Shown: one piece after another, positions 20,690 through 44,785 of the stretch
Numbering within the stretch: the stretch's first letter is position 1
Layout of the letters: every line of letters begins with the position of its first letter
DNA from: Bacteroidota bacterium
Lineage (GTDB): Bacteria; Bacteroidota; Bacteroidia; 2-12-FULL-35-15
DNA length: 64,000 bases
Assembly: GCA_947476185.1 (NCBI GenBank)
Contig: CANJPX010000010.1
Coordinates: forward strand, 574-64,573
Direction of reading: 5' to 3'
The notes under the pieces: generated by a model
Database searches by the model: none
Told to the model about the DNA's origin: nothing
Seen by the model: only the letters and a program-made list of their open reading frames with translations
Made by a program: the position numbers and the translations under genes

Positions 20690-21529
20690 CTACAAATATT
20701 TTTCAAGTAATGCTTCCATTTCTTTTTGCAACTTCATCGCTTCCTCTCTTGCTTTTTCAGCAAAATTATCGCCAGTACTTGCATAAATAATTCCGCGAGA
20801 GGAGTTTACTAATAAACCACATTTTTTATTCATTCCGTATTTAGCAACATCACTAAGACTTCCGCCTTGAGCGCCAACACCAGGTACCAGTAAAAAACTA
20901 TCAGGAATAATCTTTCGGATATCAGAAAGCATTTCTGCTTTTGTTGCACCAACAACATACATCATGTTATCGGGACATGACCAGGATTTGGAAATTTCAA
21001 GAACATTCTCAAAATTCCTCCCCCTACCCCCTCCAGAGGGGGACAATATCTCAGTCAGTTGAAAGTCTGAAGCTCCGGAATTGGAAGTCAATGCTAATAA
21101 GATCACCCATTTATTTTTGTATTCCAAAAAGGGTGTCACACTATCTTCTCCCATATATGGAGCAACAGTAATCGAGTCAAAATCTAAGTTCTCCAAAAAT
21201 GCTTTTGCATACATCTTTGATGTGTTGCCTATATCACCACGTTTTGCATCTGCAATTGTAAAAATATCCGGACACGTTTGATTGATATACTTGATCGTTC
21301 TTTCTAAACTGACCCAGCCTTTTGCACCTTGCGTTTCATAAAAAGCCATATTCGGTTTATAAGAAACACAAAAATCTTTCGTGGCGTCAATGATCTGTTT
21401 ATTGAATTCGAAAATTGGGTCTTCAGATTTTAACAGATGCTGAGGGATCTTGGTAATATCAGAATCTAAGCCAACGCATAGAAAGCTTTTTTTCTTTTTT
21501 ATGTTTTCGAAAAGTTCTGTTCTTGTCAT
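20690..21529 (-). CDS. pyrF: orotidine 5'-phosphate decarboxylase (type 2)
   Basis: 279 aa. ..[16 protein letters not shown].. motifs of long-form PyrF. Carries an odd low-complexity stretch [10 protein letters not shown] encoded by a GC-rich palindromic motif (see findings). Confidence 0.85.
21018..21046. repeat. GC-rich palindromic mini-motif (CCCCCTACCCCCTC-CAGA-GGGGG), copy inside pyrF
   Basis: Direct reading. Very unusual G/C runs for this AT-rich sequence. A near-identical motif recurs at 21618-21650. Confidence 0.45.
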
Positions 21530-21617
21530 TTGATTCCGCTACCTCTATTGAAAGAGGAAATTGATTTTTTTATTTGATGTGTATAGCAACTATTATTAAT
21601 TTTAGTTGCGAATATTC

Positions 21618-21650
21618 TTTTACACCCCCCTACCCCTCTCAAGAGGGGAA
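21618..21650. repeat. GC-rich palindromic mini-motif (CCCCCCTACCCCTCTC-AA-GAGGGG), intergenic copy between pyrF and prfA
   Basis: Shares CCCCCTACCCC + TC + AGAGGGG with the 21018-21046 copy. Forms a 6-7 bp G/C stem. Confidence 0.45.
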
Positions 21651-21723: not shown

Positions 21724-22800
21724 TTAAACCCCAACACCACCTTCTTTCAATCGTTCTGAATTCTCGGCCAACTGAAGTGCATCGATCATATTTTGAATTT
21801 TGCCATCCATAAAATCTGTAAGATTATACAGTGTCATATTAATACGATGATCAGTAATCCTGTTTTGAGGATAATTATATGTTCTGATCTTTTCGGAACG
21901 ATCACCCGTTGCAACAATGGTTTTTCTACGTTTAGATATTGCATCTAAATGTTTTGTCATTTCGATATCGTACAATTTGGTACGCAACATTTGCATTGCT
22001 ATCTCACGATTTCCAAGTTGAGAACGATCTTGCTGACAAACAACAACGATTCCGGTTGGTTTATGCGTCAACTGCACTTTTGTTTCAACCTTATTTACGT
22101 TCTGTCCACCTGCACCACCGGAGCGCGATGTTTGCATTTCAATATCACCGGGATTTAAAACAACATCCACCTCATCTGCCTCAGGCATAACCAAAACTGA
22201 AGCTGCAGATGTATGCACACGGCCCATTGTTTCGGTCAAAGGAACACGCTGAACACGATGCACACCAGCTTCAAACTTCAACATTCCATAAGCATTGTCT
22301 GAAGTGATCTTGATTATAACCTCTTTGAATCCACCCATTGTTCCATCGTTGGAATCAACTACTTCATACTTTAAGCCTTTTTCATCAAAATAACGACAAT
22401 ACATTCTGAAAAGATCACCTGCAAAAATACTCGCTTCATCACCACCTGTACCGGCACGAATTTCCATAACGGCATTACGTGCATCCTCAGGATCTTTAGG
22501 GACAAGCATTTGACGGATATCATTTTCCATTTGCTCCTTCTTTGGAAGAAGTTCTTCCATATCCATCTTTGCCATCTCTTTCATCTCATCATCTTTTTCG
22601 TTGGCAAAAACGCTCTTATTGAACTCGATATTCTCAACTACATTTTTGTATTCGTGGTAAGCATTTACAACCAATGTAAGATCTTTATATTCTTTATTGA
22701 ATTTTTTAAATTCCTTCATATCGCCAATTACTTTGGGATCCGACAGTTTCTGTTCAACCTCTTCCCAACGTCTTTTTATGGCAGCTAATTTTTCTAACAC
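21724..22800 (-). CDS. prfA: peptide chain release factor 1
   Basis: 358 aa with the GGQ motif ([16 protein letters not shown]) and the RF-1 type PxT-region. N-terminal [22 protein letters not shown]. Confidence 0.9.
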
Positions 22801-24316: not shown

Positions 24317-24370
24317 TTTTGTTTTCCTGACTTTAAGGTCGGGGCCATATTAAAGACGGGGCCATATTAA

Positions 24371-24410
24371 ATAAAAACATCCCGTAAAAGTACGGGATGT
24401 TTTTTATTTA
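24371..24410. terminator. bidirectional rho-independent terminator (downstream of the OmpA-family gene)
   Basis: Perfect hairpin CATCCCGTA-AAAG-TACGGGATG flanked by AAAAA on one side and TTTTTTATTT on the other. Confidence 0.65.
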
Positions 24411-24425
24411 TTCTATAATAAGAAT

Positions 24426-26537
24426 TTATTTTTCTTCTTCGTCTTCACCTTCTGTTTTAGGAACAACAGGAGCGATCACAGGAACATCTTTAGGTGCATT
24501 AGGATCAACAAAATCCTTACGTAACACTTTAAATACCGTACGTCTGTTCTTCTGCATCAAAGCCTCAAATACTTCTTTCGGCTGCCCTTTAGTTGTTTTA
24601 TTGATATATGATTCAGATAATGTATAATCAACTTTTCCATCCGGCTCAATATCAACTTCTAAAGGACTTTTCTCACCATAACCTTTTGGGGTCATACGTG
24701 CAGCAGGAATTCCTTTTGAAACCAAATAGTCAACGCAAGACTTAGCACGCGCTTCAGACAATTTCTGATTTGCAGGATCGCTACCTCTATAATCCGTATG
24801 AGAACTTAATTCGATAGTGATGTTCGGGTTATCGATCAAAGTTTGATAAAGGAAATTCAATGAATCCTGAGATTCCGGTCTCAAATCTGCTTTACCTAAA
24901 TCGTATAATACATCAGGGAAACGCATTTCTTTTTTGATAGGCGCTAAACAAAAATCATGTTTAAAGATCTTTGCTTCTTCAACACCAACTGTAGTTTCTT
25001 TTACTTTATCAGAACCGTTCAAAAATCCTAATGCAGCTTGTGTGGTTTTAACATCAGGTCCAACCTGAGTAGTAATTACATAAGAAGTATTTGGGATAAC
25101 ATAACGAGCGGTACCATTTTCAGCAAATTTGAAATAACCTGCTGCATCTGTTTTTGTTTCAACAGAAGATCCGTCAGAACCAACTAATTTTACTGTCACA
25201 CCAGGAATTACTTCTTTGTATAAACAATCAGAAACAACACCTTCAATAGTAAACAACAATGGAGGAAGAACGAATGACCAGATATCATCAGCACCTTTTG
25301 TTCCTTCACGGTTTGAAGAAAGATAACCTCTTTCTTTTTTACCTTCGAAAATAATACCGAAATCATCACCAGCAGAGTTGATAGGGTATTTCATATTTGT
25401 AACGTTACCCCATTGGTCATCACCTTTTTTCTCAGCTTTGAAGATATCCAAACCACCCATTCCTAAGTGACCTGTAGAAGAGAAATATAAAGTACCATCT
25501 TCGTGGATGAAAGGATAAACATCATTACCCGGAGTATTGATAGAAGTTCCAAGGTTTATAGGATTTCCCCATTTAGCACCTTTTTTCTCATATTTCACCA
25601 TCCAGATATCATTTTCACCTTGTCCGCCTGGCATGTTAGATGAAAAGAACAATGTCGTACCATCAGCAGAAATACAAGGAGTAGCATATTTTAGTGTATC
25701 GATACAAAATGCCATTTTAACAGGATCTCCCCAACCAGCACTCTTTTTAGTAGCTGACCAAATTTGATTGTAAGTAACATTTTTCTTGTCAACAATACAT
25801 CGAGTAAAGTATATAACATCACCTTTCTTGGTAACGCTACTTAATCCTTCATTATCTTTAGTGTTCACAGGCTCAGGAAGAGATGTCGGAGTATTCCACT
25901 TCCCGTTCTTATCCATCATTGCTTCAAAAATATCACTATAGTTTTCTCCATTTGTACCATCAATTGCAGAACCAATAACTCCGGGACGCATAGATGTGAA
26001 ATAGATCTTATTATATTTTTTATCTGCATATGAAGGAGCGAAATCAGGATCTTTTGTATTCAATAATGCAATGTTCTCAACCTTATAACGGGTTGCGGCA
26101 TCTTTCCATTTTTGAGCCAACTCACATGATTTAGCGCCATCTTCACCACGAGGATCAGAAGGAACTTCTTTTTTATAGTTGTTATACTCGATCAATGCTT
26201 CGTTATATTTCTCCAATGCTTTTTTAGCATCTGCCAAATACAATTTTGCTTTCGGGTCAGTGTAATTAGCCTTTATAGCTTTCAGATACCAAGCTTCTGC
26301 TTGTTTATTGTCGCCAATCAAACGATAACACTCTGCTGTTCTGAATACGATAAAAGCCTTATCTTCCTTCTTCTTTGCCTTTGTATATGCTTTTTTGTAT
26401 AGCTCGATAGAGTTGAAATATTCCTGACTTTCAAATGCTTTTTTTGCATCAGCCATAAAATTTTTCTGTGCAAAAGCGGAAGCTGAAAATAAAAGAGCAA
26501 GAGCTAAAATTGCAGTTAATTTTGTAATTATCTTCAT
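24426..26537 (-). CDS. OmpA-family outer-membrane/peptidoglycan-associated protein with N-terminal TPR repeats and TolB-like beta-propeller
   Basis: 703 aa. Signal peptide, TPR-like helical repeats, WD40-like beta-propeller repeats (..IYFSS..). C-terminal OmpA-like domain (..SSHTDYRGSDPANQKLSEARAKSCVDYLVS..). Confidence 0.75.
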   Translation of the reverse strand: MKIITKLTAILALALLFSASAFAQKNFMADAKKAFESQEYFNSIELYKKAYTKAKKKEDKAFIVFRTAECYRLIGDNKQAEAWYLKAIKANYTDPKAKLYLADAKKALEKYNEALIEYNNYKKEVPSDPRGEDGAKSCELAQKWKDAATRYKVENIALLNTKDPDFAPSYADKKYNKIYFTSMRPGVIGSAIDGTNGENYSDIFEAMMDKNGKWNTPTSLPEPVNTKDNEGLSSVTKKGDVIYFTRCIVDKKNVTYNQIWSATKKSAGWGDPVKMAFCIDTLKYATPCISADGTTLFFSSNMPGGQGENDIWMVKYEKKGAKWGNPINLGTSINTPGNDVYPFIHEDGTLYFSSTGHLGMGGLDIFKAEKKGDDQWGNVTNMKYPINSAGDDFGIIFEGKKERGYLSSNREGTKGADDIWSFVLPPLLFTIEGVVSDCLYKEVIPGVTVKLVGSDGSSVETKTDAAGYFKFAENGTARYVIPNTSYVITTQVGPDVKTTQAALGFLNGSDKVKETTVGVEEAKIFKHDFCLAPIKKEMRFPDVLYDLGKADLRPESQDSLNFLYQTLIDNPNITIELSSHTDYRGSDPANQKLSEARAKSCVDYLVSKGIPAARMTPKGYGEKSPLEVDIEPDGKVDYTLSESYINKTTKGQPKEVFEALMQKNRRTVFKVLRKDFVDPNAPKDVPVIAPVVPKTEGEDEEEK

Positions 26538-26697
26538 AATCGATTTTTAGGTTTTACGTATTAGTGGCTGCTAAAATAAATAAATATTTGGAACAAAAAA
26601 ATTCTTTTTATGTCTATTTTATTTTATAATTCCACTTTTAAAGCCAGATATCACCGCCAAAATTGCTTTTGACAGGGTATCAGGTGCTTTTTTCCTC

Positions 26698-39216: not shown

Positions 39217-39606
39217 TTGAAAAAGTCACTGATCTTATTTTTGACATTCATTTACCTGGTTGTAGCATCAGGCGTGGCTTTTAATTTCCATTACTGCCGA
39301 GGTAAGATCAGCAGCATCTCTCTTGCATTTGTCAGCAACCACGATAATTGTTGTGGAAAAAAGAAAATGACAAAGAAAAACTGTTGTAAAAACAAAACCT
39401 CAGTTTTAAAAATAAACGACAATCAACATTCTTCAACAAATATCAAAGCGCCTTCAACAATCATTACGGCTATTGACGCTAGTTTTACACAGATCAACTT
39501 CAGTGTTGCATCTATCATTGAAGCGAAAACCATTTCAAGAATTCACGCCCCCCCTGATATTTATCAGGATTCGATATACCTGCAATATCGCGTATTGATC
39601 ATTTAG
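39217..39606 (+). CDS. hypothetical small Cys-rich membrane-anchored/secreted protein
   Basis: 129 aa. Hydrophobic N-terminus then HYCRGK..NHDNCCGKKKMTKKNCCKNK. No family recognised. Confidence 0.35.
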   Translation: MKKSLILFLTFIYLVVASGVAFNFHYCRGKISSISLAFVSNHDNCCGKKKMTKKNCCKNKTSVLKINDNQHSSTNIKAPSTIITAIDASFTQINFSVASIIEAKTISRIHAPPDIYQDSIYLQYRVLII

Positions 39607-40099: not shown

Positions 40100-40107
40100 C
40101 CCCCCCC
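40100..40107. repeat. poly-C homopolymer (8 C) at the junction between a signal-peptide ORF and a cytochrome c domain ORF
   Basis: Direct reading of ttttcaCCCCCCCCactt. Frames 40049..40234 and 40150..40470 differ by one position. Confidence 0.9.
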
Positions 40108-41950: not shown

Positions 41951-44185
41951 ATGAAAAAACTATATTATAAATATATCATCCTTCTTGGAATCCTGTTCAT
42001 TACTATTCTGAGCACAAATGCTCAAAATATTGCAGGAACTGTATTTGGAATAAATGATAAAGGGTTAAATGAAATTCTTCCAGGTGCAAATGTATATTGG
42101 AAAGGAACATCCATTGGCACTTCAACAGATATTAATGGCAAATTTCAAGTTCCAAACCCTGAAGCGGTTCCCTCCAAATTAATTATCAGCATGATTGGTT
42201 TTATGAGCGACACAATGACAATTGAAAAACCAGATCAATTGAATATAAAAGTTGTATTAAAAAGCAGCATCACATTAAAAACTGTCAATATTGAAGCGAA
42301 ACAAAATTCCACAATGTATTCAACTTTTAACCCAATCAATTCTGAAGTAATTAGTGGAAAGGAATTACTTAAAGCTGCCTGCTGCAACCTTTCGGAAAGT
42401 TTCAGCACGAATGCCTCTGTTGATGTCGCATTTACCGATGCAGTCTCTGGAGCAAAAAAAATTCAAATGCTTGGACTTGATGGTGTGTATACACAAGTGT
42501 TATCTGAGAATATGCCGATGTTAAGAGGATTGTCAGCGGCTTACGGTTTAAATTATATTCCAGGCACATGGATTGACAACATCTTAGTTACCAAAGGAAC
42601 AGGATCTGTAGTGAATGGATATGAAAGTATATCAGGACAAATCAATCTTGAGTTTTTAAAACCACAAAATCAAAAAAAACGTTTGTTTATTAATTTGTAT
42701 GCAAATGAAAAAGGGCGGGATGAAATAAATGTCCATTTGGCAAAAAAATTTAATACAAAATGGACAACACTTCTATTTACCCATTTGAGTGATATGAGCA
42801 TGAAGAATGATGCTAATAAAGATGGATTTTTAGATATGCCCTTAACTCGTCAATACAATATTTTTAACCGATGGGATTATCATAATCAGAAAAATTTCGA
42901 ACAGCAGTTTGGAATAAAAGCACTTTATGAAATGCGTCAAGGAGGACAAACAAATTTCAATTACAACAGAGATCATGATAGCACAAGTGCTTATGGTATA
43001 GGTATCAATACTACTGCTTTAGAATATTTTTCAAAAACAGGATTCATGTTTCCATCAAGACCTTTAAAGAGCGTTGGTATTCAAACTTCAGGAAAATGGC
43101 AACAACAAGAAATGTATTTTGGTATAAGAAAATACAATGGAGAACAAAAGAATTTTTATACAAATATCATTTATGCAAACTTCATCAACAATACAGATCA
43201 CAAATATAAATTGGGTGCAAGCTATATGTTAGATGATTATTCAGAAAAGTACAACGACTCATCTTTTACCAGAACAGAAAGTGTTCCCGGAGTATTTGCC
43301 GAATATACTTATACACACCCTGATAATTTTTCTATCGTTATCGGCGGCCGCGCAGATTACCATAACATGTATGGAATACAATATACACCACGTTTGCATT
43401 TACGTTTCAATGCAACAAAAACAACTACTTTTAGGCTATCAGGAGGCAGAGGCTTCAGAACATCAAACATTTTTGTGGAAAACCAATCTGTATTCGCAAG
43501 TTCAAGAAAGGTCGTAATCGCAGAAAAGCTTAAGCCTGAAATTGCTTGGAACTATGGCGTTTCGGCTAATCAAAAATTTACTTTATTCGATAATGAAGCT
43601 TCTGTAAATGTTGATTTTTTCAGAACCGATTTTCAGAATCAAGTAATCGTTGATATTGATCAAAGCGTAAACAAAGTGGTGTTTTATAATTTAAATGGAA
43701 GATCTTATTCCAATAGTTTGCAAATTGATTGTGGTTATTCTCCCATAAAAATGTTTGACATAAAGGTTGCCTATAAATGGTACGATGTTAAAACAACATA
43801 TAATTATGAATTACTCGACAAGCCCTATATTCCAAAGCATCGCGTGATGTTCAATATGGCATATTCAACATATATGGATATTTGGAAATTTGATTTTACA
43901 ACAAATTGGCTAGGAGAAAGCAGATTGCCAAGTACAGAATTATCTCCTATTGAATATAAATTACCAAAACATTCAAACCCTTACTTTTTACTAAATGCGC
44001 AGATTACAAAAAAATTTAAAACATTTGAACTTTACTTGGGTTGCGAAAACATTTTGAATTACACGCAGAGAAATCCAATCATTGCCTCAGAAAACCCATT
44101 TGGCAGCAACTTCGATGCTTCAATGATCTATGCACCTATTGAAGGTCGAAATATTTATGGGGGATTCAGAATGAGTATCAAATAA
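41951..44185 (+). CDS. TonB-dependent outer-membrane receptor with N-terminal carboxypeptidase-regulatory-like domain
   Basis: 744 aa. Signal peptide, CarbopepD_reg-like start (..NIAGTVFGINDKGLNEILPGANVYW..), plug, 22-strand barrel length. Contains a CC pair (..LLKAACCNLSESF..). Confidence 0.85.
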   Translation: MKKLYYKYIILLGILFITILSTNAQNIAGTVFGINDKGLNEILPGANVYWKGTSIGTSTDINGKFQVPNPEAVPSKLIISMIGFMSDTMTIEKPDQLNIKVVLKSSITLKTVNIEAKQNSTMYSTFNPINSEVISGKELLKAACCNLSESFSTNASVDVAFTDAVSGAKKIQMLGLDGVYTQVLSENMPMLRGLSAAYGLNYIPGTWIDNILVTKGTGSVVNGYESISGQINLEFLKPQNQKKRLFINLYANEKGRDEINVHLAKKFNTKWTTLLFTHLSDMSMKNDANKDGFLDMPLTRQYNIFNRWDYHNQKNFEQQFGIKALYEMRQGGQTNFNYNRDHDSTSAYGIGINTTALEYFSKTGFMFPSRPLKSVGIQTSGKWQQQEMYFGIRKYNGEQKNFYTNIIYANFINNTDHKYKLGASYMLDDYSEKYNDSSFTRTESVPGVFAEYTYTHPDNFSIVIGGRADYHNMYGIQYTPRLHLRFNATKTTTFRLSGGRGFRTSNIFVENQSVFASSRKVVIAEKLKPEIAWNYGVSANQKFTLFDNEASVNVDFFRTDFQNQVIVDIDQSVNKVVFYNLNGRSYSNSLQIDCGYSPIKMFDIKVAYKWYDVKTTYNYELLDKPYIPKHRVMFNMAYSTYMDIWKFDFTTNWLGESRLPSTELSPIEYKLPKHSNPYFLLNAQITKKFKTFELYLGCENILNYTQRNPIIASENPFGSNFDASMIYAPIEGRNIYGGFRMSIK

Positions 44186-44220
44186 TAATAAACACAATTA
44201 AAAATCAAAAACTAAAAAAA

Positions 44221-44580
44221 ATGAAAAGAAAACTATTTACGGGAATCATAGCCGTGCTTTTGCTATTTTCTTCAAACGTAAAAGCACAAGATTTAAAAAG
44301 TGCGGAAATAAAAATTAAGACTTCTGCAACTTGCGACATGTGCAAAAAAACAATAGAAAGTGCTCTCGCATTCGAAAAAGGCGTAAAAAAATCAACGTTG
44401 GATGTACCTACAAAAATAGTTACAGTTGTATACAACCCAAAGAAAACAACGCCAGAAAAAATTCGACTGGCAATTTCCAATGCAGGATATGAAGCTGACA
44501 GCTTAAAAGCTAATCCTAAAGCATGGAGCAACTTAGAGGATTGTTGCAAAAAAGGCACCACTTGTGAAGAAAAAAAATAA
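44221..44580 (+). CDS. periplasmic heavy-metal-associated (HMA) domain protein (copper-chaperone-like)
   Basis: 119 aa. Signal peptide. HMA fold with metal-binding ..TSATCDMCKKTIESAL.. (CxxC). C-terminal ..EDCCKKGTTCEEKK Cys cluster. Confidence 0.75.
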   Translation: MKRKLFTGIIAVLLLFSSNVKAQDLKSAEIKIKTSATCDMCKKTIESALAFEKGVKKSTLDVPTKIVTVVYNPKKTTPEKIRLAISNAGYEADSLKANPKAWSNLEDCCKKGTTCEEKK

Positions 44581-44785
44581 TTGTTGAAGTTCTCTATTTT
44601 CAATAACGATTGAATACTAATAATTGTAGCATTTTAGAGCAATTTTAAAAATAATTTTAGTAAATTTGATTCAATGAATACGTGGATATTCAAATAAATG
44701 GGATTAAGAATAACAAAACCCTAACAAAATATCAAAATCACTAGAAACTCTTTTAAAATAAAATAATCGCAAATAAATAAAACCA

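Follow-up and report, generated by a model that had tools for sequence, protein, structure and literature searches.

The DNA analysed here, called the window throughout, is a 64-kb stretch of an A/T-rich Bacteroidota genome (64,000 nucleotides), with a G+C content of approximately 35% around pyrF. The gene order at this locus, purM-prfA-pyrF-DUF2851, is kept in relatives. Two G/C-rich strings, CCCCCTACCCCCTCCAGAGGGGG at 21020–21042 and CCCCCCTACCCCTCTCAAGAGGGG at 21625–21648 (both read on the plus strand), had been singled out by a sequence-only reading of the window, and a string search recovered both. Copy A lies inside pyrF, and copy B in the spacer that separates the start of pyrF (21529) from the stop of prfA (21724). 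The sites had been placed correctly, but the ranges given for them, 21018–21046 and 21618–21650, were slightly wide; the full extents are 21018–21042 and 21622–21648. The features of the locus are as follows, with the motifs written on the pyrF-sense strand.

20690–21529, minus strand: pyrF, orotidine-5'-phosphate decarboxylase (Pfam OMPdecase), 279 aa, host of copy A
21018–21042, minus strand: copy A, intact triplex motif within the coding sequence of pyrF, matching class II perfectly over 7 triplets, none in shuffles; pyrimidine arm CCCCCTC (21042–21036), loop TG, purine arm GAGGGGG (21033–21027), linker TA, mirror arm GGGGGAG (21024–21018)
21533–21559, minus strand: third copy, decayed, a few bases upstream of the pyrF ATG, CCTCTTTCAATAGAGG-TAGCGGAAT, recognised by alignment with the related locus L208
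21622–21648, minus strand: copy B, intact triplex motif in the prfA-pyrF spacer, found by three-arm scan; pyrimidine arm CCCCTCT (21648–21642), loop TG, purine arm AGAGGGG (21639–21633), linker TAGG, mirror arm GGGGTGT (21628–21622)
21724–22800, minus strand: prfA, peptide chain release factor 1, upstream neighbour of pyrF in the conserved gene order

The string CCCCTACCCC occurs at only two sites in the 64 kb, copy A and copy B. The same two copies are the only matches in the window to the hairpin pattern CCCCTC-N2-8-GAGGGG, for which 100 dinucleotide-preserving shuffles gave an expectation of 0.00. An ITxF-like scan, which required a homopyrimidine arm, its exact complement and a mirror arm, with stems of at least 5–6 nt and loops of 1–6 nt, found exactly two perfect three-armed motifs, both on the minus strand, and none in 30 shuffles; a relaxed scan that allowed one mismatch found none in 10 shuffles. 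A chance origin of the two motifs is excluded. The sequence-only reading had remarked on the rarity of G/C runs; tracts of at least five C or G are indeed uncommon in the window, but they are also present outside both sites. An Rfam search at the pyrF locus returned nothing meaningful.

Each element had been described as a palindromic repeat with a hairpin. The hairpin arms are present, but a plain palindrome is an incomplete description: a third arm follows that is the mirror image of the purine arm, G facing G and either A or T facing A (T faces A in copy B), making each element a triplex motif. No Watson-Crick pairing is possible between the third arm and the full first arm. The 11-nt core previously listed as a separate component dissolves into this architecture, its upstream C-run being the complement of the third arm that mirrors the purine arm of the hairpin. 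A class II motif, as defined for ITxF, consists of a homopyrimidine arm, its Watson-Crick homopurine complement and an antiparallel-matching third arm, with stems of 6–15 nt and loops of 1–6 nt (Holder et al., 2015, PMC4666352). Both copies match this class II intrastrand purine-motif definition perfectly over 7 triplets. Their stems measure 7 nt; both loops of copy A are 2 nt long, and copy B has a first loop of 2 nt and a second of 4 nt.

The best-studied family of such motifs is BoxC/PIT/TM_ECO of E. coli, with the consensus CCCTCNCCC-N3-6-GGGNGAGGG-N3(TTA or CCG)-GGGNGAGGG (PMC4666352). In vitro, CD and NMR show that single-stranded TM_ECO folds into a stable triplex, and NMR excludes a G-quadruplex, whereas footprinting in vivo indicated that the triplex is scarce or transient (PMC4666352). 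The 23 copies in K-12 are all intergenic, five sites being inverted pairs; the loci vary unusually strongly between strains, and no transposase or integrase has ever been found near them (PMC4666352). The pyrF copies share with this family (Hoyne and Maher, 2000; Holder et al., 2015, PMC4666352) the order of the arms (pyrimidine, purine, mirror purine), the triplet rule (G·G-C, A/T·A-T), a short second linker that is often TTA-, CTA- or TA-like, and the occurrence as single copies or inverted pairs at locally variable loci. They differ in having stems of 7 nt rather than 9 nt, with loops of 2–4 nt, and their arms begin CCCCCTC rather than CCCTCNCCC, so that the window copies, in a Bacteroidota host, depart from the TM_ECO consensus. 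Copy A further lies in frame within the housekeeping gene pyrF, whereas TM_ECO is always intergenic (PMC4666352). The pyrF elements belong to the BoxC/PIT triplex-motif class as a shorter-stemmed Bacteroidota variant, and the genic position is unusual. This locus extends the class, in that shorter form, to A/T-rich Bacteroidota.

From the sequence rules and the published work on TM_ECO, the pyrF copies are predicted to be capable of folding as triplexes in DNA; the purine-motif triplex reportedly does not form in RNA (PMC4666352). Ordinary structure prediction gives hairpins with only modest Watson-Crick folding energies of -5.5 to -6.2 kcal/mol and z-scores that are not significant. In Vienna folding, the C-arm can pair with either G-arm, giving alternative hairpins.

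Comparison with other genomes allowed the third arm to be assessed. Different stems occupy the same two pyrF positions in relatives, and the tail changes along with them: CCCCCTTT / AAAGGGGG / GGGGGATT in one set, CCCCTCTC / GAGAGGGG / GGGGTGTG in a second and CCTCCCC / GGGGAGG / GGAGGGG in a third. In all, the pyrF locus presents five distinct combinations of stem and tail. We also scanned one genome per species with the pattern CCCCCTY-N2-6-RAGGGGG-N2-3-GGGGGA, which matched at least 120 stretches; those listed span Bacteroidota, Cyanobacteria, Patescibacteria, Omnitrophota, Chloroflexota, Desulfobacterota and other phyla. With a looser pattern, at least 120 stretches were also matched in viral contigs. 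Covariation was tested at tail positions that the search pattern leaves free, using 133 non-identical matches; related copies within one genome inflate the counts, although the matches come from more than 100 genomes. At the 7th triplet, a stem C is accompanied by a tail G in 38 of 39 matches and a stem T by a tail T in 90 of 94 (Fisher P = 1e-29); at the 8th triplet the counts are 14 of 17 and 43 of 43 (P = 4e-11). These data indicate that the third arm is under constraint and covaries with the stem.

Copy A is translated as S163–R171 of PyrF, SPSGGGRGR, from codons at 21017–21043. Among the best 120 PyrF homologues, all from uncultured Bacteroidota and 73–100% identical, variation is almost confined to the stretch between DFQ and (L/F)(Y/F)xxVL. 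The sequence-only reading had proposed that a small repeat was inserted here in frame and tolerated, and the alignment bears this out: close orthologues of 269 aa are empty at this site (DFQTTN-NLYQ), and others are filled, variant or tandem. The GGGRGR segment is also present in P0002–P0009, P0012, P0025, P0040 and P0065, which taken literally speaks against an insertion. Empty orthologues exist as well, however, and the shared segment means merely that the insertion predates this genome. Eight of the homologues listed have the empty form (269–270 aa, nothing inserted). The clade of the window has SPSGGGRGR; SPFEKGARGI is found in many homologues, SIVEKGRGM in a large group and VTLSGVEGQ in five, and some homologues carry two to five tandem units. 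In the DNA of relatives, what distinguishes a filled from an empty site is the motif together with a few bases, and the DNA that encodes SPFEKGARGI is another perfect triplex motif. Distant Bacteroidota PyrFs (63–75% identity) have an ordinary short loop and no G/C element. In a neighbour-joining tree of PyrF the empty and filled forms are interleaved, which is compatible with repeated insertion or repeated loss.

The insert coincides with the stretch of lowest AlphaFold confidence (pLDDT <50 at residues 162–167), in a loop between helices at 151–158 and 172–183; at this position, the structures of homologues 3qw3 and 3r89 show either a gap or a loop of other length. The repeats generate length polymorphism and tandem expansion in this protein loop. 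The L208 pyrF contains two full 39-nt units in tandem, and L207 (10480–10640) a five-unit array of 30-nt repeats that brings PyrF to 321 aa. Four of these five units lack 9 nt between two G-runs, suggesting slippage between the G-runs as the mechanism of deletion. In L209, the pyrimidine arm of the genic motif has been mutated away, leaving a PyrF that reads SIIERGRGL; this points to a motif that is decaying rather than maintained. The peptide VTLSGVEG is encoded by a different repeat, an inverted repeat around small GIY-YIG ORFs in L005 and L208, so that the same codon position of PyrF has taken at least two unrelated repeat families. These GIY-YIG ORFs encode 102–111 aa (L005:14340–14950 and L208:13830–14320) and are flanked by the inverted repeat GTCACCCTGAGCGGAGTCGAAGGG, which, read as VTLSGVEG, is found at the PyrF loop of P0015, P0018, P0019, P0021 and P0026. 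Although near pyrF, these ORFs were set aside: their flanks carry this different repeat and no triplex motifs.

Copy B lies approximately 95 nt upstream of the pyrF ATG and 75 nt downstream of the prfA stop. Its orthologues are present in L005, L127 and L208; L003 and L128 have a different motif immediately before the pyrF ATG, and the leader copy is absent in L006, L207 and L209. The L208 leader holds both a distal and a proximal copy. It is 82% identical to the leader in the window, where the hairpin at 21533–21559 aligns with the intact proximal L208 motif TCCCCCTTGGAGAAGGGGGCAAGGGGGATT, identifying it as a decayed third copy. The pattern in L006 (neither copy) and in L003 and L005 (both copies) had suggested that genic and leader copies are coupled. 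We dropped this idea, since L127 has a leader copy and an empty genic site; the two pyrF sites are independent. Sequestration of a Shine-Dalgarno sequence, which we considered for the viral matches, was likewise set aside, as the window element faces away from any plus-strand gene. Shine-Dalgarno sequences are rarely used in Bacteroidota.

We asked whether the copies could serve the genes beside which they lie. The sequence-only reading suggested that the intergenic copy might terminate prfA transcription, and copy B is indeed on the same strand and contains a G/C hairpin of 6–7 bp a short distance past the prfA stop. An intrinsic (Rho-independent) terminator requires such a hairpin to be followed directly by a T-run. 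Here TAGGGGGGTGTAAAAG follows instead and a terminator scan does not call copy B; no such element lies after prfA in L006 or L207, and the model leaves the third arm unexplained. A role as terminator, or as a 3' hairpin that stabilises the prfA mRNA, is therefore improbable. We give slightly less credence still to a cis-regulatory device specific to pyrF, such as a pyrimidine-sensitive pause or attenuator, in which the homopyrimidine arm would slow RNA polymerase at low CTP/UTP and the hairpin would then alter the structure of the leader or mRNA. Copies are concentrated at pyrF (the window has 2–3 and L208 as many as 4), and the whole leader is predicted to fold more stably than its shuffles (z = -2.7). 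Every intact copy at the locus is sense-oriented, which could be a hint of function. However, their presence is patchy: L006, L207 and L209 have no leader copies and the 269-aa PyrFs no genic copy. The motif class also occurs in unrelated genes, in both orientations and in many phyla; it is this patchiness and this recurrence elsewhere that disfavour regulation specific to pyrF. There is also no U-tract, and the genic copy in L209 has decayed by loss of its pyrimidine arm.

A simpler view is that the elements are mere G/C hairpins or two-tetrad G-quadruplexes with an incidental mirror arm, or that the segment in PyrF is a low-complexity loop native to the protein. The G-runs could form a G-quadruplex, the alternative hairpins predicted by Vienna use either G-arm, and the length of the PyrF loop varies across Bacteroidota. 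But the third arm obeys the purine-motif rule position by position, including positions that the search pattern left free, and NMR excluded a G-quadruplex for TM_ECO (PMC4666352). The loop codons also have the same architecture as the intergenic copy and are conspicuous in a genome of 35% G+C. We thus consider these simpler readings improbable as well. In our assessment, the pair in the window probably represents solo copies of an insertion-prone intrastrand triplex motif repeat, the copy in pyrF being tolerated and needing no function specific to that gene.

As solo copies of such a repeat, the elements would behave as follows. The pyrimidine arm would pair with the purine arm on one DNA strand, and the mirror G-rich arm would fold back onto the purine arm through reverse-Hoogsteen G·G-C and A/T·A-T triplets. 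The repeats would be prone to insertion and locally unstable. One presumably entered a disordered surface loop of OMP decarboxylase in frame, where it is translated (SPSGGGRGR) and tolerated, and was passed down a clade of uncultured Bacteroidota; the leader holds one intact and one decayed copy. Any effects, such as a stable leader hairpin or local expansion and deletion, would likely be incidental.

Strict and relaxed scans of the 64-kb window found no further triplex motifs beyond the pyrF locus. With the copies in these 64 kb confined to that locus, dispersal in this genome is deduced from relatives. In L208, an RmlD-type reductase gene carries an in-frame TM_ECO-like motif, CCCCTTTCC-TTC-GGAGAGGGG-CA-GGGGTGAGG, encoding NPFPSERGRGEVS, that is missing from the L003 and L005 orthologues. 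In L003, a further copy, inverted and slightly degenerate, lies at the stop of prfA, and TM_ECO-like versions of 8–9 nt occur in the other Bacteroidota loci L129, L208 (at 14659) and L279. Among the genome-scan matches listed, most copies are intergenic, often as inverted pairs 40–120 nt apart, and in low-G+C genomes approximately one-eighth lie inside a long ORF. Eight host genes were confirmed by Pfam: leucyl-tRNA synthetase (LeuRS), another class I aminoacyl-tRNA synthetase, ATP-dependent DNA ligase, penicillin amidase, a GT1/GT4 glycosyltransferase, RNase HII, a SAM-dependent methyltransferase and a class V aminotransferase. Both orientations of the motif are found in these eight genes. 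The repeats account for the recurrent low-complexity peptides SPxxxGGxG and PPxPxxxGG in Bacteroidota and metagenomic proteins, which matters for annotation.

BoxC/PIT/TM repeats have been known since the 1990s without an identified function or source of mobility. A candidate partner came from L279 (2575–3002; Flavobacteriaceae bacterium UBA7954), where a complete DUF559 (PF04480) domain lies in frame in LeuRS, directly before the editing domain. Two inverted triplex motifs bracket the domain and are read as the peptides LPPAPSEGGG and SSGEGWGEV, the frame being open throughout. A tblastn search with this domain against all retrieved loci gave 8 full-length matches and one short partial match (L205). 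In 7 of the 8 full-length matches, the DUF559 ORF is flanked on both sides by inverted motifs at a distance of 2–118 nt. Because those loci had been preselected for carrying motifs, we took an independent sample of ten DUF559 genes from plasmid and chromid records by tblastn. Eight of the ten have G/C-rich motifs within about 200 nt, as against essentially none in shuffles, and in four cases (two Synechocystis plasmids, Pseudanabaena and Sphingomonas) motifs lie on either side of the gene. The Sphingomonas copy is wedged between sufB and sufC.

The background of motifs in the surrounding 50 kb is low: Sphingomonas has 4, of which 2 touch the gene, and Azospirillum has 2, one of them at 48 nt. 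In the other 50-kb neighbourhoods, Photobacterium has a cluster of 10 that begins at 206 nt, and in N. gonorrhoeae 4 of 6 motifs lie within 190–853 nt. In E. coli K-12 (NC_000913.3, L330), the DUF559 gene ycjD (1351407–1351760) is 167 nt from TM_ECO no. 9 (1351204–1351239), on the 3' side. With 18 TM loci in 4.64 Mb, we roughly estimate the chance of such proximity at 0.003. The 2015 description of TM_ECO mentions neither ycjD nor any endonuclease (PMC4666352). Our literature search, which was incomplete in coverage, found no paper that links DUF559 with triplex repeats and none on triplex repeats in frame in Bacteroidota genes. DUF559 endonucleases thus offer a specific candidate partner for BoxC/PIT-type repeats. 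The plasmid pGJ3-1 of Photobacterium sp. GJ3 (L343) is notable for its arrays: 10 motifs with 10-nt stems alternate in strand over 1.3 kb adjoining the DUF559 gene (25360–26654), and 7 more lie approximately 18 kb from this first array (43648–44708).

The relation between gene and motif may take either of two forms. The orientation of motifs around DUF559 genes is not uniform and follows two configurations, and the data fit motifs that are the ends of a DUF559 element as well as DUF559 genes that insert into pairs of motifs. We know of no transposition chemistry for DUF559. The 64-kb window contains no DUF559 gene, and a single-protein DUF559 query of viral contigs gave no confirmed relative. 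The closest precedent is REP/REPIN-RAYT (Bertels and Rainey, 2011, PMC3116915; Di Nocera, 2013, PMC3733652), which has in common with the present repeats short G/C-rich hairpins, solo or in inverted pairs, and an associated gene flanked by inverted copies, usually at about one copy per genome. REPs differ in that they lack a mirror arm, bear a GTAG or CGTC tag, are extragenic and have as partner a Y1 (IS200-like) transposase rather than a PD-(D/E)XK DUF559 protein. The linker contains GTAG in the window copies and is TTA, CTA, CAA or CCG in relatives. For TM_ECO, no linked mobility gene was found (PMC4666352), whereas DUF559 genes adjoin such motifs here.

Given the motifs that flank DUF559 genes and the analogy with REP/REPIN-RAYT, solo copies are most likely non-autonomous partners, which would have been spread by a DUF559 (Vsr-like PD-(D/E)XK) gene elsewhere in the genome. 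The wider proposal we advance only tentatively, with somewhat more doubt than conviction: that triplex-motif repeats, those at pyrF included, are the non-autonomous partners of DUF559 genes in a REPIN/RAYT-like selfish or domesticated system. Such a system would range from E. coli (ycjD and BoxC) to Cyanobacteria, Deinococcus, Bacteroidota and candidate phyla, and would also write peptides, or a whole endonuclease domain, in frame into housekeeping proteins.

Entry into conserved enzymes in frame sets these repeats apart from the E. coli copies and likens them to the Rickettsia palindromic elements, selfish palindromic repeats that are inserted in frame at surface positions of conserved proteins and translated. 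The latter are A/T-rich Rickettsia-specific families, RPE-1 to RPE-8, of approximately 100–150 bp with no mirror arm. At 25–27 nt and in a Bacteroidota host, the pyrF element does not belong to them; the common feature is the in-frame insertion. The mobile GC clusters of yeast mitochondrial DNA are also G/C-rich and palindromic; the genome that hosts them is very A/T-rich, and some are inserted in frame in the protein gene var1. They are organellar and 30–50 bp long, and to our knowledge no triplex architecture has been described for them.

Several other features were noted along the way. In L209 (5552–6595), one called gene combines 4HBT thioesterase and PDDEXK_3 nuclease domains and may be another case of a small nuclease gene fused into, or inserted beside, a housekeeping gene. 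Within the window, a tandem direct repeat, GGGGCCATATTAAAGAC-GGGGCCATATTAAA (24341–24374), lies 25–58 nt upstream of the start of purM (AIR synthase; 24316, minus strand) and is a possible operator. The longest homopolymer tracts, C7 at 39548–39554 and C8 at 40100–40107, are possible sites of slippage or phase variation. Finally, between 52000 and 64000 the G+C content climbs from approximately 0.33 to 0.46, and this region contains many recurring GGGGC(A/T/C) motifs, apparently in repeated domains of a very large gene.
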